From assembly GCA_037200905.1 (NCBI GenBank), contig JBBCGN010000001.1:25380-89379 (forward strand): DNA of 64,000 nt, given 5' to 3'. Under the pieces are notes generated by a model that saw nothing but the letters and a program-made list of their open reading frames with translations, was not told the origin of the DNA and searched no databases. This stretch comes from a bacterium (lineage in GTDB: Bacteria > Patescibacteriota > Minisyncoccia > Phycocordibacterales > UBA9973). Below are positions 3,327-45,373 of the stretch, piece after piece (within the stretch, counting starts at the first letter, position 1; each line of letters opens with the position of its first letter). A program made the position numbers and the translations under genes.

Positions 3327-4391
3327 ATGAAAAAGAAAAGCGAACCAAAAGAGAAGAAGGTGATCAGCAATAATGACGACGGTCAGGCCCTCGCGAATAC
3401 ACTAAAGGCAATCCAGACGAAATTCGGCGAAGGCTCGATAATGAAGCTCGGCGAGAAGCCGAGAGTCGATCTGAACGTCATTCCGACCGGCAGCTTGGGC
3501 CTCGATATGGCTCTCGGCGTCGGCGGAGTGCCTCGCGGCAGGATATTGGAAATCTTCGGTCCGGAATCTTCCGGCAAGACTACCCTCGCCCTCCACATCG
3601 TCGCAGAAGCCCAGAAGAAAGGCGGCATCTGCGCCTACATCGACGCTGAGCACGCCATGGATCCGAACTACGCGCGCAATCTCGGGGTGAAGATCGACGA
3701 GCTGCTCATCTCCCAGCCTGACACCGGCGAGCAGGCCCTCGACATCACCGAATCCCTCATCCGCTCCGGCAAGATCGATGTCGTCGTCATCGACTCCGTC
3801 GCCGCCCTCACCCCTGAAGCCGAGATCGAGGGCGACATGGGAGCACAGCATGTCGGCCGCCAGGCCCGCCTGATGTCACATGCTCTCCGCAAGATGACGG
3901 CCATCGTGGCGAAGTCGAAGACCGTGGTCATCTTCATCAACCAGATCCGCATGCAGATCGGCGTGATGTTCGGGAATCCCGAGACCACCCCGGGTGGCAA
4001 GGCGCTCAAATTTTACACGTCCGTGCGCCTCGACATCCGCCGCATTGCCCAGATAAAGAAGGGCGAAGACGTAGTGGGCGGCCGCACCCGCGTGAAAGTG
4101 GTGAAGAACAAAGTGGCCGCGCCTTTCAAGCAGACAGAGTTTGATATCATTTACGGCGAAGGCATCTCTCATGAAGGCGAACTGATGGCCCTCGGCGAGA
4201 AGCTCGGCATCATCGACAAGTCCGGCGCCTCGTACTCGTACAAGGGCAAGGACGGCGAGAAAGTCAGCATGGGCCGCGGCTATGACGCCACGAGGACATG
4301 GCTCAAGGAAAATGCGAAAGTGACGAAAGAATTGGAAAAGGAGATCCGCAGCCGGTTCGGCGAGATACAAGTGGCGAGCTCAGGGGAATAA
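3327..4391 (+). CDS. recA: recombinase RecA
   Basis: [13 protein letters not shown] Walker A and RecA-wide similarity. Confidence 0.95.
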
Positions 4392-9387: not shown

Positions 9388-10257
9388 GAAGACTCTTTTA
9401 GCGTTATTGATGACCGCCCTGAGCCACTTCAGACTCCGACAAACCCTTCACGAGAGCGATCTTTTTAACTACTTCCCGCACGTAGGCTGGCTCGTTGCGC
9501 CTGCCTCTATACGGCACAGGAGTTACGTATGGGGCATCGGTTTTCAGTCATGATCATATCGAGCGGTGCCATCTTGATGACGTCGTCATAATCTTTGGTA
9601 AAAGTAATAACGCCGGTATAAATGACAGCGTTAAAGCCGAAATCCAGAAACGCTTGTGCAATTTCCGTATTGCCGGCGAAAAAATGCACATCGCCTTTTA
9701 CCCGTGAATGCTCTTTCAGAAGTGTGAGGGCATCAAGATAGGCATTTGGCTTTTTCAGTTCCGCCAGTCTCCAATTCTATCTTGTCATTATTGCGGATAT
9801 GCAGCATCATCGGCTTGCCGACTTCATTCGCAAGTTCTATCTGCTCGACGAAAGCTGTTTTCTGCTTCTCGATGGACTCCGCGTCCATGCGGTAGTAGTC
9901 GAGTCCGCACTCCCCTATAGCCACCGTCTTCGGATTCTTCAAAAGTTCACGATATGCATCCTTGTCGAAGACTTCGCCGCGATATGTGAACTCTTTGCCG
10001 CCTTCGCCAAGCTCTTTCTCATCATGATATGAAGCGCCCGTATGAATAGGATGGAGGCCGATGATGGCATAGACGCCTTCATCATTTTTTTCCGCCAGTT
10101 CTACGGCAGAGCGCGAAGTATCGAGCTGGGGTACCGACATTTATGACCCAGGTCTCGGCATCGAGAGCGCGCTTGATAACTTCATCCCTGTCTTCTTCAA
10201 AGGCTTTGAAGTTCACATGGCTATGGATATCAATATACTTAGGTTCTTTTTGGGGCA
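9388..10257 (-). CDS. tatD: TatD-family DNase (frameshifted)
   Basis: IDIHSHVNF N-terminus, AIGECGLDYYR, and a C-terminus ..AQAVINNAKRVFGI. One shift, at about 10136, is an extra C in a CCCC run. Confidence 0.75.
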
Positions 10258-10261
10258 TAAC

Positions 10262-11709
10262 TTAGTCCTTGCGCAAAAATAACGGCGTTTCTGGATTGCG
10301 ATGACCTTTGATGAGAGCAAGAATCTTTTCCGAAGTCTCGGGCATAAGGCCTGCGAGGTGATATGCGATGTCGGCAAGGCCGCTGACCAGATTCGCGATG
10401 ATCTGCTTGGCTTCGTCAGGATCGGTCTTTACTAATTTGAACGGTTCCTTTTCCTGGATCAGGGCATCGAGTTCGCCGGCCCAGGACCAGATAATGTCCA
10501 TGGCTTTCTGGATATTATAGGTTTGGATATTATCTATGACATCAGCATCGTACTGCCCTTCGGATATTTCTACCGCACCTTCGAGATTCGTCGTCGCCAT
10601 CTTCATGATGCGGGAGGTGAGATTGCCGAGGCCGTTCGCGAGATTGGCGTTGTAGGCTTCTTTTACTTTATCAGGCGTGATGTCGCTGTCTTCAAAAGGA
10701 TTGCACATGACGAAGCAGGAAATATCTCACTGCTTCTGTGCCGTATTCCGCCACGAGATCGAGCGGATTGATGACATTGCCGAGAGACTTTGACATCTTC
10801 TGGCCCTGGGATGTGATGAAGCCGTGATAGACCACCTTGTCCGTATTCTTTATGCCTGCGGAAAAGAGCATGGCCTGCCACATCAGGGACTGAAAGCGCA
10901 CTTGGTCCTTGCCGGCCATCTGCACCCACTTCGCCCCTCCTGCCAGAATTTCTTGAAGTTGCCTTCCGCGTCTTCCGGCCAGCCGAGAGTAGAGATGTAG
11001 TTCGTAAGAGCGTCGAACCAGACGTACATGACCTGCGCATCGTCGCCAGGCACCGGCACGCCCCAGGAAAGCCTTTCCTTTTCACGGGAAATACTGAAAT
11101 CTTCCAGTCCGCCTTTGACGAAATTGATGGCTTCTTCCCTGCGCCAGTCAGGCTGAATAACATCAGGCTGCAATAGATATGCAAGAAGCTGTTCCTGATA
11201 TCTGCTGAATTTAAAAAAATAGTTCTCTTCCTTGAGCGTCTGTATCTCGAGATGCGGATGGATGAGGCAATGGCCGCTTTCGTCGAGATCCTTTTCCAGT
11301 CTTGAAGGCTTCGCAGCCGACGCAATACTGGCCCTCATAGGCCTTTTTTATAGATATCGCCCGCAGCATCGCAGCGCTTCCAGATCTCTTGGGCAAGCAA
11401 GCGACATGATGCTCGTCCGTCGTGCGCACGAAGTTGTCGACGGAAAGGGTTGAGGGCGTCTTTCAGCTTGCGGAACTCTGCCGCATAATAGTCGACGTAG
11501 TCCTTCACCTCCTTTCCTGCTTTTTCCGCCGCTTCGTATATCTTCTGTCCGTGCTCGTCGGTACCGGTAGAGAAAAAAACTTCCTGTCCCATGAGCCTGC
11601 GGTAACGCGCTATCGCATCAGCAGCTACGACTTCGAGCGCAAATCCGACATGCGGATCGGAATTCACGTACGGCAGAGTGGTAGTAATGTAAAAATTATT
11701 TTGCTTCAT
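10262..11709 (-). CDS. metG: methionyl-tRNA synthetase (at least 3 frameshifts)
   Basis: Four collinear fragments: YITTTLPYVNSDPHVGF (HIGH region), ..WGVPVPGDDAQVMYVWFDALTNY.., KMSKSLGNVINP, and the anticodon-binding C-terminus. Confidence 0.85.
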
Positions 11710-11712
11710 CGC

Positions 11713-12774
11713 TTATTCGCGTAGAGACTTTACGCTCTCGATGTCGTTCGTCAATTCCATGATGAACACGGCCACGGGGATGGAAAGGACCATGCCCCAG
11801 AAGCCGCCGAGCTCGAAGCCGATGAGCACCGAGAGGATGACCACGAGCGGCGTGAGCCCCACCACGCGCTTGATGATGAGCGGCGTGAAGAGGAAGGTCT
11901 CGAACTGGTGGACGATGAGGTACGAGCCCGCCACGATGAGGGCCATGGAGATGCCCCCAGAGGAGATACGAGAACGCGATAGCGGGGAAAGACCGCGATG
12001 ATCACGCCGTACGGCACGAGCTGCATGATGCCGGCGATGATGGCCAAGAGGAGCGCGTATTGGATGCCGATGAGCGACAATATCAGATACAGCAGCACGG
12101 CGATGATGAGACTGATCAGCATCTGGCCCTTGACCCACAAGGCTATTTTCTTGCGCGAGCGCTCCCACAGGTCGACGGCGTAATTCTCGTATTTTATCGG
12201 CAGGATGATGCGCAGGAAATTCTCGATACCCTTCTCCTGCACGGGAAAGATAGAACGAGATGATGACGATGAGCACGACGTTGAAGAAGTTCCCGAAGGC
12301 CGCGGAAAGAGTCTGGAAGAATCCGCCGGAGAGGTTCGTGATGAAGGCTTTGGACGTGTCGAGAAGCGTGGTGAGAGACAGGCTGTGCGAGAGGTTGTTG
12401 ATGATGTCTTTCGCCCCCGAGAACGCGTCGTTCTGGAAGTAATTGATGATGGAAGAATTCGGTATATAGGTAGAGAGGAATGTCGAGAAATTGTACACCT
12501 CGGTGATGAGGAGCGGCGCGAAGAGGTAGAACACGCCGGCGAGCGCGAGAATCGAAAGCACATAGAGGATGACGATGCCGAGACCCGTCCGATGCCGAAG
12601 CGCTTCCAGAACGGCACGGTGGATTCGACGAATGATGCGAGGACGATGGACGTGAGCACGATGAGCATCAGGTCCCGCAAGTACCAGACGAGGAAGAAGC
12701 CGAGCGCCACGAGGGAAGACGCGGATGATGGAACCGGTAGATATCGAAATGCGAGTCACTGAATTCTTCTCCAT
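11713..12774 (-). CDS. AI-2E family transporter (PerM-like), frameshifted
   Basis: TM-rich fragments in two frames, with the C-terminal ...GFWGMVLSIPVAVFIMEL typical of AI-2E permeases. Confidence 0.7.
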   Translation of the reverse strand: MEKNSVTRISISTGSIIRVFPRGARLLPRLVLAGPDAHRAHVHRPRIIRRIHRAVLEALRHRTGLGIVILYVLSILALAGVFYLFAPLLITEVYNFSTFLSTYIPNSSIINYFQNDAFSGAKDIINNLSHSLSLTTLLDTSKAFITNLSGGFFQTLSAAFGNFFNVVLIVIISFYLSRAGEGYREFPAHHPADKIRELRRRPVGALAQENSLVGQGPDADQSHHRRAAVSDIVAHRHPIRAPLGHHRRHHAARAVRRDHRGLSPLSRSRISSGGISMALIVAGSYLIVHQFETFLFTPLIIKRVVGLTPLVVILSVLIGFELGGFWGMVLSIPVAVFIMELTNDIESVKSLRE

Positions 12775-12821
12775 GAAAACATCATACCACAGGAGCCTGC
12801 GAATACGAGAACTGTCCTAGA

Positions 12822-14087
12822 ACGTGAGGATTTTTGAGAACTTCGCCTTATCCTTGAACGGCCCGATCAGGGCGAGGTTGAGGTTCTTATCAGTGAAAAT
12901 CTTCCTGGCCATGGCCTGTATCTCGGCCGCGGTGACCTTGCGGATTTCCTTTGCCTTGTCCTCGATGTTCTTCAGCTCGCGCTTCAGGAGCTCCTGCCCG
13001 CCGTAGAAATTGGCGATATCGTCGCTCGACTCGAGCGAGAGCTTGGTGTTGCCGATGAGGCATTCCCTTCACCTTTTCGAGCTCGTCTTCGCTGATTTTT
13101 TTATCCTTGAGCTTTTTGCATTCGAGAAGCACGGCCTTAATGACTTCATTGATGCGCTTGTTGTCCCACGCCGGCCGCCACCTCGAAGAAGCCGTGGTCG
13201 GTGTAGGCGTCGTTATACGCGCGGACATAATACCCTACGCCCATCTCCTCGCGAAGCTTTTGGAAGAGGCGCGAGCTCATGCCGCCGCCGAGGACGCCGC
13301 CGAGCACCGAGAGCACGGCATTGTTCTTGCTGAAAAGATCATAGGTGCGCATAGCAAGGACGAAATGCGTCTGGTCGGTCTTCTTGTATTTCACCATCAC
13401 CTCTGGCTTTGACTGATGTTCTTTGACTTTCAGCTTTGAGAGTTTCGTGCCCCGAGAAACAGTGCCGAAAACTTTTGTAGCTTCCTTGAGAACTTCTTTT
13501 TCTGTCACCTGCCCTGCTACGACAATGACGGTGGCTTCCGGCAGATAATGGTTCTTCTTGTAGCTGGTGAAATTGTCCCGCTTCATGGCGAGGATGTTCT
13601 TGCGCTCTCCGGCGATGTTCCATCCTGCCGGCTGATCGCCATAGAGGAGTTCCATGATCAGATCCTGCACGTGCCTGTTCGGCATATCCTCGTACATGTT
13701 GATCTCCTCGATGATGACGCCTTTCTCTTTTTCTATTTCCGCATCGGGAAACGTCGAGTTCAGATAGATGTCGGAAACGATGTCAAAGATCTTCTTGAAA
13801 TGGCGGGCATCGCTCTTGGCATAGTAACCCGTATATTCCTGCGCGGTAAAAGCATTGTACTGGCTGCCGAGGGCGTCGAGCTCCTTGGAGATATCGATGG
13901 CCTTCGGGCGCCTGACGGTGCCCTTGAAGCACATGTGCTCGAGAAAATGCGACAGGCCGTTCTCGGCCTTTGTCTCGTATTTGGAGCCCGCTTCGACGAG
14001 CACGAGCACGGTCGCAGTCGGATTGTCCTTCATCGGCACGGTGACGACCCGCAGGCCGTTCTTCAAAACTTTCTTGGAAAACTTCAT
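12822..14087 (-). CDS. M16-family zinc peptidase (frameshifted)
   Basis: HFLEHM (the HxxEH zinc motif) near the N-terminus. The C-terminal domain continues in 12890..13228 and down to the stop at about 12824. Confidence 0.75.
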
Positions 14088-14105
14088 CTTATATTTTTTC
14101 TCTTA

Positions 14106-15443
14106 TGTATTTTATTAAATCAGCGACCTGTATCCTCTCTTGAGTCCCGGTTATCGCGGTCGCGCACGGTAACCGTATCTTTATTTTCCGGATTCTCTTC
14201 GCCGAGCGGTATCGAAATCTACGACGATGCACCACGGCGTGCCGATCTCGTCCTGCCTGCGGTTAGCGCTTGCCGATGTTTGCCGTTATCGTCCCAGGCC
14301 ACGCGGCCCGAATTCCTTCTTGAGCGGTTTCGAAAACTTTCTTCTCGGCATACTCCACGAGCTCTGGCTTGTTTTTCAGCAATGGCGACAACCGCGCAGA
14401 TGACCGGCGCGATGGAGGGCTTCAGCTTCAGATATTCGCGCACGTCCCCGTCCTTCTCATCTTCAGCGTACGCGGAAACCAAGAGAGCGAGGAACGCCCT
14501 GTCGAGGCCCGAATGACGGCTCGATGACGTGCGGCACTATTTTTTTCGCATTCTCTTCATCGACATATTCGAGCTTGTGCGTATTCAAATCATAATCAGT
14601 ACGATACGCGAGGCCGAACAATTCCTTGCGGCCGAACGGATAATCGAACTCAAGATCGATTGTTTTCTTGGAATAAAACGCCCTGTCTTCATCGGGCACG
14701 ATGAGCTCGTGCACTTTTGTAGCATCGATACCTATCTCCTCGATCCAGGAGAGCATATCGCTCCTCCATGCATCAAAAGATTTTTCCCAATCATCCGGCC
14801 GGACAAAGTATTCTATTTCCATCTGCTCGAATTCTCGCTGTCTGAACAAAAAATCGCGCGGAGTTATTTCATTTCTGAACGCTTTGCCTATCTGGGCCAT
14901 GCCGAAAGGTAATTTAGGATGAAAAGCATCAACAGTATTCTTGAAATTCACGAACATGCCCTGTGCCGTCTCGGGGCGGAGATATGAGATGGCCGACGAG
15001 TCGTCCGATGCCCCCACTTTGGTCTGGAACATCATATTGAATTGTTTCGGTGCTCCAAGTACTTCCCCGTCATGAGGGCACAAAGGCATGTTACCGAGCA
15101 TTTTAAATCCGTCCAACTGATCTGCTCTGAATTTTGATCTGCATTTAGGACACTCTACCATCGGATCGGCAAAGTTTGCGACATGTCCTGTCGCTTGCCA
15201 GACTTCTTGCCGCATCAGGATGGCGGCATCCATGCCGTACATGTCGCGGCGCGAATCCACGAATTTCTTCCACCAGGACTGCTTGATATTGTTCTTGAGC
15301 GCGACGCCGAGATGCCCGTAGTCAAAAGTACCCGCCAGTCCCCCGTAGATTTCCGAGCCTTGAAAGGCGAAACCGCGCCTCTTGCACAGAGACACGATCT
15401 TTTCCATCAGCATATCGGTTTTTGTAGTTTGCTTGTCAGCCAT
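14106..15443 (-). CDS. glyQS: glycyl-tRNA synthetase (dimeric class II type), frameshifted
   Basis: N-terminus MEKIVSLCKRRGFAFQGSEIYGG. The C-terminus, recovered across shifts, reads ..[28 protein letters not shown]... Confidence 0.85.
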
Positions 15444-31377: not shown

Positions 31378-33062
31378 CTAAAGTATATCAAGAATTCTTA
31401 GACGGAGCTCTTCCCTGCCGCGAAAGCGGGAGAGATCGAATGTAGCGAGAACGTTCACAGGCGTTGAAGTCTCGAGCGAAGTGCTGAAAGAATCCATATT
31501 GGAAAAGAATGATACCGCTTTCGCCTTGTGATGTCCTTCATCGGAGAAAAGTATTTCTAAGTGCTCGCCCGAACCGTTCTTGCCGAAAGCCCGGACATTT
31601 TCGATCTTTATATTCTCGAACAGGAATACCGGCTTGGGATTGGCCAGGCCGAAAGGCGCCATCTTCTCTAGTTCGCGCCAGTTTGTCATAGTGCAGAGGC
31701 TGAAGTCGCCGGCAATGTCGGCGTCATTGGTCTTAGATTCGACAGCATGCTTGATATTGCCATACGATTCGGAAAGAGCATCCTCGAGAAAATGAATCTT
31801 GTCGGGATGAACAGTAAAGCCGCCAGCCAGTTCATGTCCGCCGAATTCCATAAAAGAATCGCTTGAGGCATTCATGAGTTCCACGACAGATACCGAGCCG
31901 TCGCTGCGGCACGAGCCCTTGATAGCATCATTCTCATCTTTGCCCCAGACGAATGCCGGCTTCTTATAAAGATCGCAGAGCTTTCCCGCTACCAATCCGA
32001 GCACGCCGACGCGCCATTCCGGATTCCCGACGACGATGACAGCCTTCATTTCCCTGATGCCGAACTTTTTATTCACGTCTTTCATGATAGCGGCAACGAT
32101 TTTCTTGCGATCATCATTTATCTTCGACAGGTGATTTGCCAATCTATCAGCATCTTCATCGTTCTCGGTAGAAAGCAATTCATAGGCCCGGAGCGGATCA
32201 TCCATTCGCGAAGCGGCGTTGAGCCGGGGCGTAAGCATGAAGCCGATGTCGTCTTCGGAGAGATACTGCTGCTCGATGCTCATCTTCTTCAAGAGTTTCT
32301 GCAGTCCTTTGCGCGGAGATTTGCGCATGGACCTTCATGCCGAAGTGGGCGATAGTCCTGTTCTCTCCGGTGAGCGGCACCATGTCGGAAAGCGTTCCGA
32401 GCCCCGCCATGTCGAGCATCCATTTTTCCGCGCCGGCCTTTATCTTGAAATATTCTCCGTATTTTTTTATGAAGCCTTGAGCGAATTTGAAAGGAATTTG
32501 AAAGCAACGCCCGAGCCGCAGAGCATCTTTCAGGATAATCGTCGGTCTTCGGATTGAGTACGGCGAAGGCACGAGGCAATTCGCCGGCGGCAAATGGTGA
32601 TCGGTGATGATGACATCCATACCGTCTACTGTTGCCTGAGCCACTTCTTCCACCGCCGTGATGCCAAGGTCGACAGTGATGATGAGCTTCACGCCGCTCT
32701 CGGCAAATTGCTTTATGGCAGTGAGATTCAGGCCATATCCTTCAGAAATTGCGCTTAGGAATATAAATCTCATAGTTCTTATAACCGGTTTTCTTGAGCA
32801 AATCTTCGAGAATGACCGCTCCCGGGATGCCGTCGCAGTCATAATCGGCATAAATGACGACCTTCTGATTGTTTTCGATAGCCTCGTAGAGCCGCACGCA
32901 GGCACGCTCCATGTCGCGCATGAGAAATGGATCGTGCAGGCCCTTTTCGTAATCGGGATTGAGAAAGAGATCGGCTTCTGCCACGTCGGTGATGCCCCGC
33001 TTGGCCAGTATTTTCTGCAGCAGCTCCGCGTATTTTTGCATAACTCGAATTTTAGCATACAA
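31378..33062 (-). CDS. recJ: single-stranded-DNA-specific exonuclease RecJ (frameshifted)
   Basis: VVIYADYDCDGIPGAVIL, IITDHH (DHH motif), and a DHHA1 C-terminal domain. Confidence 0.85.
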
Positions 33063-33073
33063 TAGAGAAAGTT

Positions 33074-33427
33074 ATGGATAACTGCATTTTCTGCAAAATA
33101 ATAAAGGGCGAAATACCGAGCTACAAGGTCTACGAAGATTCTGATTTCTTCGCTTTCCTCGACATTCACCCCAGAGGAGCGGGCCATGTGCAGGTCATCC
33201 CGAAGACTCACCATAGATACGTATGGGATGTGCCGAACGCCGGCGCATACTTCGAAGTCGTAAAAAAAATAGCCCTCGCACAGAAGAAGGCTTTCAATAC
33301 CGATATGGTGCGCAGCCAGATATACGGCGAAGAAGTGCCTCATGCCCACATCTGGGTCTGGCCGGAGGCCGAAGGAAACCGAGAAGCATTCGAAGAGAAC
33401 GCGCAAAAGATTACTCAAGCCCTTTGA
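33074..33427 (+). CDS. HIT-family protein
   Basis: CIFCKII...HPRGAGHVQVIPK histidine-triad region. Confidence 0.75.
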   Translation: MDNCIFCKIIKGEIPSYKVYEDSDFFAFLDIHPRGAGHVQVIPKTHHRYVWDVPNAGAYFEVVKKIALAQKKAFNTDMVRSQIYGEEVPHAHIWVWPEAEGNREAFEENAQKITQAL

Positions 33428-34406
33428 TTTTCTTTGCTAAGCCGTATCCGTTGCCATGAGAAAGCATTCCTACATAGGAAGCAATCGACTCAGGCTTCGG
33501 ATTTTTTCTTATATTTCGGTACATCCTCCTTTTTGTCGCAGTTCGTAAAACTCTATGGTTCGGAAAATGCACCCAGCCGAGAAAATCCACGCCGGAAGCG
33601 GCGGTCTTGATAAATACTTTGTCGGGATGCATGTGCAATTTCAGTTCGGTTTCCAGAAAATCTTTCATCCGTACCAATACGCCCCTCTACATATTCCTTG
33701 TCTTCCGAGAGGACGGCAAAATCATCGGCATACTGATATAGCATTTCACCTTGAGCCTGTGCTCCACGAACTGGTCGAACTCGTTCATATAGACGTTGAC
33801 CAGGAGCTGGCTGGTTAGGTTGCCGAGCGGCAGGCCCACTTGGACACCCGGTGTCCAAGTGGTGGAAAAGCTGTCGATAACGGTCGTGAGCAGCCAGAGC
33901 GTGTCAGCTTCACCTATGTGTTTCGCCAAAATCTTCTTGAGGATATCATGATCGATGTTGGCGAAGAATTTCCTGATGTCGCACTTCAGGACGTAGCAGG
34001 TTCGGGTATTGTTCTTCGACGTTCTGCGGAAGAAATGCCTGAACCGGTCCATGGCCCTGTGCGTGCCTTTGCCTATCCGGCAGGAATATGAATCGTAGAT
34101 GAACTTCTTGTCGAAGAATGGATACAACATTCTGTATATAGCATGGTGCAGCAGCCGATCGCGCACGCTCGCCTTGTGTATGTCGCGGGGTTTGGGGTCG
34201 GAAATCTTGAATGCACGGTATCCGGAATGTTTATATTTTTTTGTTTTCAAATTCAGATGCAAATTGAGCAAGTTTTCCATCAGATTTCTCTCAAAAATTT
34301 GAACATCCTCCTTGTTCCTTTTATCTTTTTTAAACTCTTTCCAGGCTAAAAGCAGATTCTCCAAGGATATGGTAACATCATATGCATGACTGCAAATTTT
34401 TCTCAC
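33411..34406 (-). CDS. DGR reverse transcriptase (2 frameshifts)
   Basis: RT motifs DIRKFFANIDHDIL, GLPLGNLTSQLLVNVYMNEFD (the DGR-type [I/L]GxxxSQ), QYADDFAVLS, and thumb LHMHPDKVFI..GVDFLGW. A C10 tract at 34421-34430 lies just upstream of the GTG start. Confidence 0.85.
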
Positions 34407-34446
34407 AGATCAAATAGTAACCCCCCCCCCGACGATTTTGCCAGTC

Positions 34447-34765
34447 ATGCAAAAAGTGAAAACTGTGTATATCCTCTGGTTTGATTGCTATAAAAAATTA
34501 GAAAAAGTACACAAATACACACTTGGACAAAAATCGACAACTTGTTCGTAGAAATTATAGAGGCTATAGCTATAGCTACTTTTTTAGACAAGACAGAAAA
34601 ACAGCCATGGATACGGCTGGCTATTCGAAAATTGGATACGATAAAAATACTTCTGATGATATTGTGGGAGGTGAAATCTATTGATAATAAAAAATATATG
34701 CATATCTCTATGCCGCTCGAAGAAATCGGCAGATGCTCGGCGGATGGAACGGACAGATCGCAAAA
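34447..34765 (+). CDS. candidate Avd-like accessory protein (four-helix-bundle / 23S-IVS family), one frameshift, on the opposite strand to the RT and TR
   Basis: MQKVKTVYILWFDCYKKLEKVHKYTLGQK.. then ..QPWIRLAIRKLDTIKILLMILWEVKSIDNKKYMHISMPLEEIGR. From memory this resembles the ..KEEKYGLTSQLRR..FIQFLRIAKGSLAEtqyhLlLA..L.YI..eEy..L......eEigKML pattern. Confidence 0.35.
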
Positions 34766-34770
34766 CAAAA

Positions 34771-34792
34771 CTCCCCTGCCAAAGCAGGGGAG
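34771..34792 (-). promoter_or_regulatory. 9-bp stem-loop immediately 3' of the TR (candidate DGR RNA structural element)
   Basis: ctcccctgc caaa gcaggggag, 13 nt beyond the end of the TR. Confidence 0.5.
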
Positions 34793-34804
34793 AAATGAAG
34801 AAAG

Positions 34805-34903
34805 TTTCGGACACCCCCGAACCACCAGTTGTCGTTCCTGTCGTTGTCGTTCTGGTTGACGTTCACATTCGGCTCATCGTTCCACCGGTTGAAGTTCACG
34901 AAG
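34805..34903 (-). repeat. DGR template repeat (TR)
   Basis: About 96-bp identity to 35259-35354 except at 14 positions, all plus-strand T (coding-strand A). The TR frame encodes an Asn-rich peptide, NFNRWNDEPNVNVNQNDNDRNDNWWFGGVR. Confidence 0.9.
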
Positions 34904-35171
34904 ATGCGTATAAAATATCTTCCGGGCCACTGCGAGCTTAACAAATCGTAAAGCTTCGCTGTATTTTATTTGTGATGGTAATCACTCAATATTTTATACC
35001 AAGTATCTTCAATTTTTGAAGTTTCTGCACAAACAACCCTGATTGAAACCTTATGTAATAAAATGACCTACCGGGTTGATTCCAAAGATTCTCTGTTTGT
35101 GGATACTGGTTTCGGCAGCATGAAATCGTAATTCCATACAAATTCGCCTAATACCGCTTTTTAGTATAACA

Positions 35172-35200
35172 AAAAAAACGGAATTTTAAAAAAATTCCGT
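35172..35200 (-). terminator. terminator after the DGR target gene
   Basis: aacggaatttt / aaaattccgtt perfect hairpin with T-runs on both strands. Confidence 0.55.
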
Positions 35201-35236
35201 TTAGAACTAAGGACTAAGTACAAAAGAGTACTGAGT

Positions 35237-35867
35237 TCAAAGCGATAAGTTCTGCTTGCGGACACCCCCGAACCACCAGTAGTCGTACCCGACGTAGTCG
35301 TCCTGGCCGACGCGCACAATCGGCTCATCGTCCCACCGGTCGAAGTCCACGAAGCACCATTTGCCTTTTGCATTTTTCCAATGCGTACCGTTCGGGCGCG
35401 TATCGGCGAATAAAGGGTCGGCTTCGTTCACGGCGCATTGTGCCAGGGGGTCAGGCTTGAGACCGCGAAGATCATATTCTTTTTCCAAATCCTCATCGCT
35501 GATATAGCGATCCATTTTTGAAGAAAAAGACATCTGTTTCTTCGCCTTCGCCTTTCGGCATGTTAGCAACAACATCATTGCTGACATATTGCTTTCTGCC
35601 TGTGGCATCCAATGCTTCCTGTGGAGCGCGTTTGCGATTCACCTGTACATGACGAACAATCATGTTGCTCTGTGCGTCTATATACTTGTGGATAATGGGC
35701 TCCAGTTCATCCACGAGAGCCTCGGCATTCTGCTCAAGAACCTTTTGTGTCGGTTCATTGGCAAAACTTTTTTGTTCTTGCGCAGACGAGCTTGCGAGAA
35801 TTTCGCAAATTTTACCGATCTGGCCCTCGGTAATGGGGCTCAATGGGTTCATGATTTTCTTGTCCAT
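35237..35867 (-). CDS. DGR target (variable) protein, about 210 aa, one frameshift near 35500-35600
   Basis: Start MDKKIMNP at 35867 with no signal peptide; VR at the C-terminus (..WCFVDFDRWDDEPIVRVGQDDYVGYDYWWFGGVRKQNLSL*). Confidence 0.75.
35259..35354 (-). repeat. DGR variable repeat (VR) at the 3' end of the target gene
   Basis: Encodes DFDRWDDEPIVRVGQDDYVGYDYWWFGGVR. The differences from the TR are confined to TR adenines. Confidence 0.9.
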
Positions 35868-35949
35868 GACGTCATTATTTAAATTATGAAGAACGATTGC
35901 AAGCTTGAAATCCCAAATGGGTATAGGGCATAGCTCATATTCACCCTAT

Positions 35950-36010
35950 CTATGGATTATACACCTATTTATGTAAAAAGTCAATACACACAAAGCCTTG
36001 TGAAATAGGC
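35950..36010 (-). promoter_or_regulatory. hairpin plus consensus promoter module, copy A (drives the DGR target gene)
   Basis: Minus strand: AAGCCT atttcaca AGGCTT hairpin (terminator for pgk), then TTGACT-N17-TATAAT. Confidence 0.6.
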
Positions 36011-37202
36011 TTATTCCAGGACCTTGATGCCCGGCAGAGTGCCGCTCGCCAGGAAGTCGAGGGCGGCTCCGCCGCCGGTCGAGACGAAGGTGAATTCGTT
36101 CTCAATCTTCAATTCGGAAATGACGGCTGCCGTGTCTCCCCCGCCGATGATGGAAATAGTACCGTTCTTTGTCGCACCTGCAATCAATCGCAATATGGCT
36201 TTCGTAGCTTCTGCCCCGCCGTCTTCGTATTTGCCGAGCGGACCGTTCCACAGGATGAGCTTCGCCGCCGCGATGAGCGGCCTTGCAAGTTCTACGGCGT
36301 TCGCGCCGAGATCGATGATAGTATCAGTCTTCTCGATATCGTGAGCATTCTTCTCGATAAGAATGCCATCTTCCATTTTCACTAGCACATCTTCCGAGAT
36401 AACGAGCTTCGGATTGCCGAGCATCTTGTCGATGCCGAAGTCTCCTTCAGAAACGAAGTGAACGCCCCACCTCAAACCCCTTTGCCTTGAGAAAATCATT
36501 GAGCATGGCCCCGCCGATGAAGAGATTGTCAGCAGTACCGATGTATCTATTGATGATAGGAAGCTTGGTATCGAATTTCGCGCCGCCGAGGATGAAGAGA
36601 AACGGATGTTCCGGCCTTTCAAAGGCGATTGAAAGGTGTTTCACTTCGCTCTCAAGCTGGAAACCCGCGTATGAAGGAAGCAGGGTCGGCACAAGGGTGA
36701 TTGAAGAATCATCTCTATGGCAGACAGGGAAAGCATCGTTCACGTAGATATCTGCAAGAGCAGCGAGAGCCTTGGCAAATTCCATATCTTTTCCTTGCTC
36801 GCCCGGATTCATGCGCAGATTCTCTAGCAGAATAACATCGCCAGATGCCATAGCCTGCACGGCCTCAGTCACTTTCGCACCGATAACTTCGGGAATAAAT
36901 TTTGAAGGAATGTATTTCGCAAGCGCTGCTGCAACAGGTGCAAGCGACTCAGTACCTTTGCCGAGATGAGTGATGAGGATTACTTTCATGCCGAGTTCTG
37001 ATAAGAACTTAATTGTCAGCAGAGCTTTCTGAATGCGAAAATCGTCTGTGATCACGCCATCCTGAATCGGTACGTTAAAATCAACGCGCACGAGCGCTGC
37101 TTTGCCCTGCATGTCTTTCAATTCTTTGATGGATTTCATAAATCGGAGCGGAGCATGGTTCTTGAAAGGGCTTGCGCAGGCCGACGGGCCGAGCAGGAGC
37201 AA
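36011..37202 (-). CDS. pgk: phosphoglycerate kinase (one frameshift)
   Basis: Two collinear fragments, with ..NGPLGKYE.. and ..GGGDTAAVI...GGGAALDFL. Confidence 0.85.
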
Positions 37203-41458: not shown

Positions 41459-41528
41459 GGCTGATTCATCTATATAGTATAAAAAGAAAAAGTCCTGGAA
41501 ATATTTCCAGGACCTGAAGATGTAAAAA

Positions 41529-42197
41529 CTACTGCGTGTGATTGCGGAAAAAAGATCGATCGCCGGCACGCCACTCGAAGGAGGCACGGAACTCAACGAC
41601 GAACACGTCCCAGCCGTCGTCGTTCCAGTACACGCACACGCCGCACAAAGCGCCTTTCTTGTTTCTGACCCAGAAGAGATTGGCGTAACCATTGTCGAGA
41701 AGGAGCTTTTCTCCTCCCACGATATGCCGTTCGCAAATCTGCTTGACGTGGGCCATATCCACTTCTTCATAGATCCCACCGGCTTTCGCGTCGCCGATAA
41801 TATTCTCTTCGGTGATATCTTCGGTGAATTTGTAGCTCGCCAGTTCTTTCGCGGGAGAGTTTTTCACTTCGGTCTCTAACCAGCTGAAGATATCGCCGTC
41901 GACATGTACAAAGATACCGCCTTGGTCTTTTGTCTTGAAGAAATCTTTGGTGTTGAAAGATTCGGTCGCTTCCAGACTTATGCCGGAAACGGCACGCTTG
42001 AGACGTCCAGAGATTTCGGAAACACCTGTAATGCCGAAAATCTCGTCTCTCTTGCTCGCCGACATCTTTAAAAACTTCTCAAGATGAAGTATGAATCTCC
42101 CGTCGTTCTTTTTTACAGCCGCTCTCAGCCGTTCAAGAATGCTTCCTTGCAGTCCAAATACTTTATCCGGATCTGCACCGATGTTTTTGTTTGCCAT
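41529..42197 (-). CDS. hypothetical protein (222 aa) driven by promoter module copy B
   Basis: ORF MANKNIGADPDK.. with no recognisable motif, embedded in the pilus cluster. Confidence 0.5.
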   Translation of the reverse strand: MANKNIGADPDKVFGLQGSILERLRAAVKKNDGRFILHLEKFLKMSASKRDEIFGITGVSEISGRLKRAVSGISLEATESFNTKDFFKTKDQGGIFVHVDGDIFSWLETEVKNSPAKELASYKFTEDITEENIIGDAKAGGIYEEVDMAHVKQICERHIVGGEKLLLDNGYANLFWVRNKKGALCGVCVYWNDDGWDVFVVEFRASFEWRAGDRSFFRNHTQ

Positions 42198-42261
42198 CAG
42201 TTTAAATTTTAAATGAACAAATCAGTCCGATTACATTTCTTGCATAGGCGGACTTTTACCT

Positions 42262-42325
42262 ATATGTATATTATACACCTATTTATGTAAAAAGTCAATA
42301 TTACGAAGCCTTGTGAAATAAAGGT
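42262..42325 (-). promoter_or_regulatory. hairpin plus consensus promoter module, copy B
   Basis: The minus strand reads tatttcacaaggctt..attgactttttacataaataggtgtataat, near-identical to 35955-36000. Confidence 0.6.
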
Positions 42326-42337
42326 TTTTCAGGAAAA

Positions 42338-43543
42338 TTAGTTGATATTGTTGAGGATCGAGTAGAGCGGCGTCACCATGGAGATGGCGAAGAAACCGAC
42401 GCCCGCGCCGATGACGATCATCAGTATCGGCTCGATGATAGTGGAAAGATTGGCAGTTTTCGCCTCGATTTCGCCTTCGTAAAATGTCGCCACTTCGAGC
42501 AGCATGTCGGAGAGCTTGCCCGTCTCCTCGCCCACTTGGATCATCTCCGCCATCATGACGGGATAGAGCTTCGGGTTGTTGACGAATACCTGGGAGAACG
42601 GCGCGCCCTTTTCGATATCGACGACGGCCTGATCGAGGACTTTCTTGTAATACACGTTCTGCACCACGTCCTTGGTGATCTCGATGGCCCGGGTGATGGA
42701 TACGCCGGAAAGGAGGAGCGACGACATGGTGCGAGCGGTACGAGCGGTGTTGAGCTCGCGGGTCATGGTGCCGATCACCGGCAGGCGCACCACGATGAAG
42801 TCGATATATTTCGCCATGAACGGCGCCCGGAAGAGATAGATGATTCCCGCGATGATGACGATGATGGAAACGAGCGACAGGAAGAGGTACTGCGAGAAGA
42901 AGTTGCCGAGAGCGATGATGAAGCGCGTGGTCGCGGGCAATGTCACTCCGAGCTCCTGGAAGGTCTTGGCGAGCGTCGGCACCACGAAGGCGAACATCAG
43001 CACGCCGATGAGCACCATGGCGGACATGATGACGCCCGGGTAGATAAGCGCGCCCTTCACTTTCTTCGTCAGGTTGTTGGCTTTCTCGAGGTTGCCGCCC
43101 ACTTCGGTGAGCGCGCCGGCCAGGTTGCCGGATTCTTCGCCGGCTTTCGTCATGGAGACGAAGAGGTTCGAAAAAGTGCCGGGGAACTTGGCGATGCCGG
43201 AGGAAAAAGTGCCGCCCGCGTTGATTTCCGCAGTCACGGAGTTGAGGATGTTGGTCAGCGCCCTTTTCTTGGTCTGCTTCTGCAGCACGGACAGCGCCCG
43301 CGAGAGCGAGAGCCCCGCCTTGATCATGCCCGAGAGGTTCTTCGTTATGAGTATCAATTCCGAAGCCTTCACTTTGCCGAAGAATCTGTCGAAGAACACG
43401 GAGAGGTCGAACTGCTTACCTTCTTCTGCGATGGTTATCGGGATGAGTCCTTTCGTCAGGAGCTCGTGCGACACGGCGAAAGGTCCCCGGCCTCCATGGT
43501 GCCGAGTGAGAGCTCGCCGGTCTTCGATTTTGCCTTGTAGGAA
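42338..43543 (-). CDS. pilC: type IV pilus assembly platform protein PilC (GspF family); one frameshift near the N-terminus
   Basis: Two T2SF repeats (..LSRALSVLQKQ...GNLAGALTEVGGNLE; ..LSDMLLEVATFYEGEIE..). Confidence 0.85.
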   Translation of the reverse strand, partial: FLQGKIEDRRALTRHHGGRGPFAVSHELLTKGLIPITIAEEGKQFDLSVFFDRFFGKVKASELILITKNLSGMIKAGLSLSRALSVLQKQTKKRALTNILNSVTAEINAGGTFSSGIAKFPGTFSNLFVSMTKAGEESGNLAGALTEVGGNLEKANNLTKKVKGALIYPGVIMSAMVLIGVLMFAFVVPTLAKTFQELGVTLPATTRFIIALGNFFSQYLFLSLVSIIVIIAGIIYLFRAPFMAKYIDFIVVRLPVIGTMTRELNTARTARTMSSLLLSGVSITRAIEITKDVVQNVYYKKVLDQAVVDIEKGAPFSQVFVNNPKLYPVMMAEMIQVGEETGKLSDMLLEVATFYEGEIEAKTANLSTIIEPILMIVIGAGVGFFAISMVTPLYSILNNIN

Positions 43544-45312: not shown

Positions 45313-45324
45313 TAGCTATAGTAT

Positions 45325-45355
45325 AGCAAAAAACCCCTCGGAACGAGAGGTTTTT
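45325..45355 (-). terminator. terminator between the VWA gene and pilB
   Basis: cccctc ggaacga gaggtt with T/A runs on both sides. Confidence 0.5.
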
Positions 45356-45373
45356 TGCATATCTTGAGAAGAT

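Follow-up and report, generated by a model that had tools for sequence, protein, structure and literature searches.

Two genes of the window, i.e., the whole 64-kb stretch of Patescibacteria DNA analysed here, are each preceded by a copy of the same promoter-and-leader module, and both belong to families that are diversified by DGRs. The first (gene A) encodes the variable protein of the resident DGR. The second (gene B) lies in the pilus cluster but comes from another DGR-target family, within which it is an orphan here. Judging from the arrangement and conservation of its parts, we consider it fairly probable that the module is a shared front end of DGR-type variable-protein genes, which would give both genes the same strong, and probably co-regulated, transcription. 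Taken alone, the repeat in the window would be an ordinary strong promoter that was copied once, and its value therefore lies in the cross-genome pattern: in related genomes, too, genes from different DGR-target families are found behind duplicated promoter-leader modules.

Extent and origin of the duplicated module

The two copies are in direct orientation, 6.3 kb apart, and are the only ones seen within the 64-kb window. They and their constituent blocks are located as follows.

35928..36021, minus strand: module copy A, ~95 nt, from TCCTG (overlapping the last pgk codons) to CTATGC in the leader; from alignment, repeat families, and blastn
42242..42334, minus strand: module copy B, full range of similarity to copy A; from alignment, repeat families, and blastn
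36011..37202, minus strand: pgk, the gene upstream of copy A; PF00162 matches both halves, frameshifted in the assembly
42338..43474, minus strand: pilC-type gene (T2SSF), upstream of copy B; PF00482, E 3e-50
35993..36007, minus strand: 15-nt box of copy A (TATTTCACAAGGCTT); holds TTCACA, which starts 20 nt upstream of the -35 start
42306..42320, minus strand: 15-nt box of copy B; TTCACA starts 19 nt upstream of the -35 start
35956..35986, minus strand: 31-nt block of copy A; -35 TTGACT at 35984-35979, 17-nt spacer, -10 TATAAT at 35961-35956; fits the lineage promoter matrix
42270..42300, minus strand: 31-nt block of copy B; -35 at 42298-42293, 17-nt spacer, -10 at 42275-42270

The near-identical duplicated segment that had been predicted is real. 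Read on the minus strand, the copies share an exact 15-nt block (TATTTCACAAGGCTT, 36007-35993 and 42320-42306) and an exact 31-nt block (TATTGACTTTTTACATAAATAGGTGTATAAT, 35986-35956 and 42300-42270), and blastn aligns copy A with copy B over 52 nt at 92% identity (E 1.8e-11). The ~55-nt repeat of the original prediction is present, but the range of similarity is wider, ~95 nt, and in the alignment extends upstream to TCCTG (36021/42334) and downstream to the pattern ATAGG-N11-CTATGC at the start of the leader (35949-35928/42263-42242). Similarly, the six variable nucleotides expected between the two blocks are found in copy A, but copy B has only five; this 1-nt indel is evident from the start-to-start distances (6313 vs 6314) and from a gap in the pairwise alignment. 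The predicted placement of the copies, 3' of pgk and pilC and 5' of genes A and B, is borne out by the positions of the stop codons (36011-36013 for pgk and 42338-42340 for pilC) and of the downstream start codons (35867 and 42197).

A copying origin of the pair, as opposed to chance or convergence, is indicated by the spacer together with the exact 15-nt block, because the probability of a 17/17 spacer match between independent promoters is ~1e-8, as estimated from the spacer frequencies of 73 promoters of the lineage. A search with the 29-nt promoter, allowing ≤3 mismatches, gives two matches in the 64-kb window and none in 100 shuffles. The 15-nt box and the ATAGG-N11-CTATGC pattern, when sought in 1.3 Mb of related DNA, are found only in the two window copies. 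Identity is complete in the blocks (15/15 and 31/31) and close to chance in the segments between them (2/6 and 2/11). Conserved blocks combined with fully diverged segments and one indel argue against a recent copying event and for selection on the blocks; an old copy held by selection appears to fit the pattern better than a recent duplication.

Promoter core and upstream box

Each copy contains the claimed TTGACT-N17-TATAAT promoter as a predicted near-consensus site with 11/12 sigma-70 consensus bases, and the two are the best sites in 30-48 kb. The distance from promoter to the next start codon is 88 nt for copy A (35867) and 72 nt for copy B (42197), without an intervening ORF, and both copies probably act as promoters. 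Near-perfect sites of this type number only two in the 64-kb window, which holds ~60 genes, housekeeping genes included.

Related DNA (1.3 Mb) contains 73 unique sites of the form TTGAC-N18-TAnAnT, from which a promoter matrix of the lineage was derived. In this matrix, the spacer carries information in a W-rich run after the -35, in AAW, and in GGTG directly abutting the -10, and the window promoter has the commonest base at most informative positions. An extended strong-promoter consensus for Patescibacteria, TTGAC(A/T)WWWW...AAW.GGTG-TATA(A/C)T, seems to emerge from L090-L095 and the 73 sites in all loci, together with window 35956-35984. Six metagenome contigs, recovered in a scan with five two-fold degenerate positions, carry 29-mers that differ at the five degenerate positions only, and the genes behind them, from different environments, encode RtcB, membrane proteins, and unknowns. 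Among 185,579 species-representative genomes, which do not include the source MAG, none contains the exact promoter 21-mer. Viral contigs contain one chance match to the 21-mer, in a jumbo-phage coding region and without a -35, and none to the box-plus-35 pattern.

By its sequence, the promoter core is the lineage's strong promoter, which alone would carry no gene-specific information; on the same basis, the parts specific to this pair are the flanking blocks only. A consensus does not account for the 15-nt box, for the leader pattern, or for identity at spacer positions that are uninformative. The possibility that the motif is simply a generic housekeeping promoter, raised with the original prediction, thus applies by half to the core, which in degenerate form precedes RtcB and other genes, but neither to the flanking blocks nor to the window.

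A third near-consensus promoter (TTGACTTTTAGTGTCTTATAGAGTATAAT) is located at 498-526 on the minus strand of the window. Here, the ATG follows only 6 nt after the -10, which suggests a leaderless transcript of a gene that continues beyond the left edge of the window.

With respect to the upstream box, a TTGACA-like hexamer at an offset of 19-20 nt is present at 9/51 unique target promoters compared with 0/72 other promoter-like sites (p 2e-4), in a post hoc test where the nine cases represent about five independent lineages. A CRP-like palindrome in copy A (TCACA-N6-TGTGT) was rejected by eye, and is not kept in copy B.

Leaders and RNA structure

Judging from the position of the -10, transcription from copy A would start near 35949, and a short stem-loop is predicted at the 5' end of both leaders.

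35923..35949, minus strand: copy A 5' leader stem-loop, predicted 7 bp (AUAGGGU...GCCCUAU); RNA fold, ATAGG-N11-CTATGC pattern
42243..42264, minus strand: copy B 5' leader stem-loop, predicted 7 bp (UAUAGGU...GCCUAUG); RNA fold

The stem sequence is common to both leader hairpins and the loops differ. Fold energies of the whole leaders are no better than those of shuffles (z +0.59 and -0.88). At its start, the gene A leader of the window (ATAGGG..ATGAG..CCCTAT) is similar to that of a B-family gene from another genome (L001). None of the Rfam covariance models matches the leaders, and a search of the window region and seven loci returned tRNAs and sub-threshold noise only. A covariance model of the A-family leader hairpin that was built here (R1) has no match in either module; its only match in the window is at 45321-45364 (E 0.8).

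A nested hairpin of ~56 nt (GTCATAGCC-AAAAG...CTGGCTATGAC) is conserved in the leaders of many DGR target genes; the two window leaders do not match its model. It is found at L022 4518-4573, L063 9863-9919, L030 9884-9940, L044 1245-1300, twice at L010 (9898-9954 and 12250-12306), and at about 30 further loci, and occurs with the A family as well as with a third and a fourth family. Compensatory changes are present in 13/20 of its pairs, with a covariation of 0.586 compared with 0.214 in shuffles, in a set where the training sequences were chosen for having a stem. The sense strand scores ~20 bits above the antisense strand, and there is no match in Rfam.

Genes A and B belong to DGR target families

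The genes downstream of the two copies, and the components of the resident DGR, are the following.

35237..35867, minus strand: gene A, DGR variable protein, ~209 aa; split in two frames near 35515-35535; from ORFs and homologues
35256..35354, minus strand: VR of gene A; ends 19 nt before the stop codon
34805..34903, minus strand: DGR template repeat (TR); 85% identity to the VR
33411..34406, minus strand: DGR reverse transcriptase; at least three frames in the assembly, RVT_1 E 4.5e-13 at 33687-34406
34542..34859, plus strand: tentative Avd-like ORF, opposite to the target/TR/RT strand and overlapping the TR; by-eye likeness to ORFs in the same position
41529..42197, minus strand: gene B, 222 aa, WDN09_00435; no Pfam match, family DGR-diversified in other genomes

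As had been claimed, copy A precedes a DGR variable-protein gene, for which TR and VR show 15 mismatches over ~100 nt, all at TR adenines. Homologues of gene A are single proteins of 200-210 aa and cover 92-98% of the fused sequence. The Avd-like ORF has no Pfam match of its own, and was compared by eye with the PF22296 bAvd ORFs of L002 and L006 and with the corresponding ORF of L010. The bAvd genes are antisense also in L002, L006, and the P0060 contig.

The assembly is rich in frameshifts, and in the window broken reading frames cluster at 31378-37202. Interrupted there are a RecJ-like gene (31378-33418), the RT (at least two breaks), the Avd-like ORF, the DGR target (at T/A runs), and pgk (near 36450-36620); no break affects FtsK, tpiA, or pilC. 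The deposited gene calls split pgk, the target, and the RT as well, and in addition pilB. Such a cluster would suggest errors in the consensus, perhaps caused by a mixture of strains at this locus, more than pseudogenes.

In the original prediction, the genes behind the two copies were regarded as unrelated, which cannot be upheld, since the family of gene B is diversified by DGRs elsewhere, and its predicted order of secondary-structure elements matches that of the A family. A homologue of gene B, P0002, is 62% identical and present in L002 and L003, where the gene is directly upstream of TR, bAvd, and RT (VR 3504-3633, TR 3954-4083, bAvd, RVT_1). The last 130 nt of the P0002 gene constitute the VR, which pairs with the adjacent TR, and in an alignment of the B family the C-terminal ~35 residues are hypervariable. 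Relatives of gene B are located in unrelated neighbourhoods. A search of both strands of the 64-kb window for a TR of gene B, with A-position mismatches allowed, found none (the best candidate has 21 non-A mismatches in 90 nt), and gene B is therefore an orphan and not a second target of the resident DGR. Besides the window, none of the 80 related loci with 10-kb flanks has an A and a B gene together.

Similarity between the A and B proteins is difficult to detect at the sequence level: BLASTP and tblastn give nothing, global hhalign fails, and the sole hhalign match (E 0.011, probability 3.8%) places the two VR regions in register. AlphaFold models of an A-family member (pLDDT 91) and of B (pLDDT only 65) have the same order of ~14 secondary-structure elements, with 112/154 SSE residues in the same state (z 3.9), a level that 0/300 block shuffles reach. 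Based on these models, a common fold for the A and B proteins is likely. The A-family model (P0060) has a pTM of 0.82 at the pLDDT given above. A Foldseek comparison of this model with the PDB gave a best E of 0.1 (TM ~0.15) and recovered no C-type-lectin DGR protein, and no fold is therefore assigned to the A family.

Recurrence at other DGR loci

The comparison set consisted of 80 A-family loci; a near-consensus promoter with a long leader is seen in almost all of them. The closest relative, L010, has a 300-nt segment in duplicate at 98% identity, which spans the upstream gene's 3' end and terminator, the promoter, and the leader up to its 60th nucleotide. One copy lies before an A-family target and the other before a target of a third family, and both targets have a TR of their own. 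Targets of the same two families share 107 nt at 83% in L036, and tandem A paralogues in L016 and L058 have upstream regions that are 88-92% identical. In L044, a fourth-family gene with a VR-like C-terminus is located 9 kb from the A gene and has the same type of leader. The earlier suggestion of a portable promoter element that accessory genes brought with them fits these data, as duplicated promoter/leader modules recur at the DGR loci of relatives.

The L010 locus (9549-14886) consists of two complete target-plus-TR cassettes in tandem, followed by one Avd/RT pair. The tandem cassettes are alike in the 5' module (98%), in the spacer that follows the VR (71-79%), and downstream of the TR (89%), but their target families differ. 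A 222-aa ORF (11201-11869) lies between the two cassettes.

An identical 33-nt promoter is found at L001 2891-2923 and in L096, where it precedes a B-family gene, and at L030 9820-9852, where it precedes an A-family gene. The sequences originate from GCA_023267435.1 (also Logan SRR14366756) and JAVHNX01, which are different assemblies, both with a GC content of 0.34. If L001/L096 and L030 represent one species, the A/B pattern of the window would be repeated there with a different spacer.

Terminators

Both variable-protein genes are followed by a predicted intrinsic terminator.

35176..35202, minus strand: intrinsic terminator after gene A; 12-bp stem and U-tract, -10.5 kcal/mol, z -3.9
41490..41515, minus strand: intrinsic terminator after gene B; -15.9 kcal/mol, z -5.0

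The modules themselves had been predicted to provide terminator hairpins for pgk and pilC, and this prediction finds no support. In the upstream hairpin of copy A, a stem of 6 bp closes an 8-nt loop and is followed by UGUGUGUAUU, without a clean U-tract (-10.1 kcal/mol, z -0.65), and that of copy B has a 4-bp stem without a U-tract (-2.9 kcal/mol, z +0.24), whereas the true terminators nearby have stems of 10-12 bp and z values of -3.9 to -5.0. In the alignment of the two copies, the 5' arm of the hairpin is not conserved.

Proposed function and alternative explanations

A shared front end could operate as follows. Two like genes carry a promoter-plus-leader module of ~95 nt, which was copied from DNA to DNA between them. 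Its parts would be the 15-nt box, whose TTGACA-like hexamer lies two helical turns upstream of the -35; a sigma-70-type promoter that follows the strong-promoter consensus of Patescibacteria at almost every informative position; and, right where the transcript begins, a short stem-loop. A single gene, ended by a strong intrinsic terminator, would be driven by each copy, and selection would hold the blocks. The expected outcome is equal, strong, and probably co-regulated transcription of genes A and B, with mRNAs that are probably stabilised by the 5' stem-loop.

The pair might also be a neutral and fairly recent small duplication, or a gene-conversion tract, with flanks of no regulatory meaning. 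The equivalent in L010 is uniform over its 300 nt, includes the 3' end of the upstream gene, and looks like a recent segmental copy, and copy B faintly resembles the final pgk codons in copy A (TCCTG..AA.A), which could be a remnant of such an event. However, a young copy or conversion tract would be uniformly similar, and the uneven identity of blocks and intervening segments in the window, together with the 1-nt indel, counts against this origin, which we regard as unlikely. Another explanation would be that both sites are instances of a generic strong promoter that the lineage places before many genes, and that they are alike because both are near consensus. The commonest bases at most informative matrix positions, and the six metagenome 29-mers upstream of RtcB, membrane-protein, and unknown genes, would agree with that, but not the identity of five uninformative spacer positions, the exact 15-nt box, or the ATAGG-N11-CTATGC pattern. 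With box and leader pattern nowhere else in 1.3 Mb, only two sites among ~60 window genes, and the exact 21-mer unmatched in the species-representative genomes (the source MAG not being among these), a generic promoter is quite improbable as the full explanation.

A bifunctional module, in which the hairpin terminates the conserved upstream gene and the promoter starts the next, would be in keeping with the fact that both copies begin ≤25 nt from the upstream stop codon, and a terminator scan does list the copy A hairpin (36012-35993) as terminator-like. Against the short stems, the missing U-tracts, the shuffle-like energies, and the unconserved 5' arm, such a dual function is highly improbable. 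A small MITE-like mobile element or the site of a site-specific recombinase might be suspected in a short direct repeat at a distance of 6.3 kb beside a retroelement, but neither terminal inverted repeats nor target-site duplications bracket both copies, and the inverted repeats that were found are internal and differ between the copies. There are two copies in 64 kb and no recombinase gene nearby, and recombination between the copies would delete pgk and tpiA, all of which makes an element of this kind exceedingly unlikely.

The shared front end can be extended to a wider proposal, which we put forward tentatively and consider doubtful in its full form. Patescibacteria would then possess a dedicated 5' cassette for DGR-diversified genes, in which a specific box, some two helical turns upstream of the -35, is combined with a strong promoter and a structured leader, the latter in many genomes a covarying hairpin that Rfam lacks. 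Unrelated target families would exchange this cassette, and a common regulator would recognise it, so that all variable-protein genes, including orphans, form one regulon whose expression may be coupled to the activity of the retroelement.

Comparison with known systems

In kind, the module comes closest to the upstream homology box (UHB) of Borrelia, which contains a promoter and operator sites for shared regulators. As in the window, divergent genes for variable surface-type proteins share promoter-containing upstream sequence within one genome. The UHB genes reside on multicopy prophage plasmids and vary by recombination, whereas the window genes are chromosomal, with two copies in 64 kb and retroelement-driven variation. 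Reference titles listed in PMC10016077 refer to a gene family with "a common upstream homology box" (Borrelia burgdorferi ospE/ospF/elp, erp).

The DGRs with multiple and non-adjacent target genes, and the CPR targets without known domains, described by Wu et al. 2018 (PMC5758913), and the separate clade of CPR DGRs, with targets that lack recognisable domains, described by Roux et al. 2021 (PMC8144416), provide a picture into which the window DGR fits. Gene B, which shares no sequence with the window TR, is not a second target of this DGR. Promoters have no mention in these two large surveys, and a shared promoter or leader of target genes is not described there. If the target families of one genome share a module, it would provide a sequence handle for orphan or remote variable-protein genes that are missed by TR/VR searches, of which gene B would be an example, and coordinated regulation becomes a testable idea. 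DGRs are unusually common in the Candidate Phyla Radiation, where their targets lack recognisable domains, and to our knowledge almost nothing is known of how and when the DGR target genes of this group are expressed.

Stem-loops at the 5' terminus protect bacterial mRNAs, as in the ompA leader. The window transcripts resemble ompA-type leaders in that both have a predicted 7-bp hairpin only a few nucleotides from where transcription is expected to begin, and differ in that the whole leaders fold no better than shuffles and that the position of the 5' end is inferred. With sigma-70 housekeeping promoters, the window promoters have in common the match to 11/12 hexamer bases, the 17-nt spacing, and a location 70-90 nt upstream of the start codon. 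They differ in the informative spacer of their lineage (W-run, AAW, and GGTG abutting the -10), and the GGTG of this spacer is not in register with the TGn of the extended -10 in E. coli.
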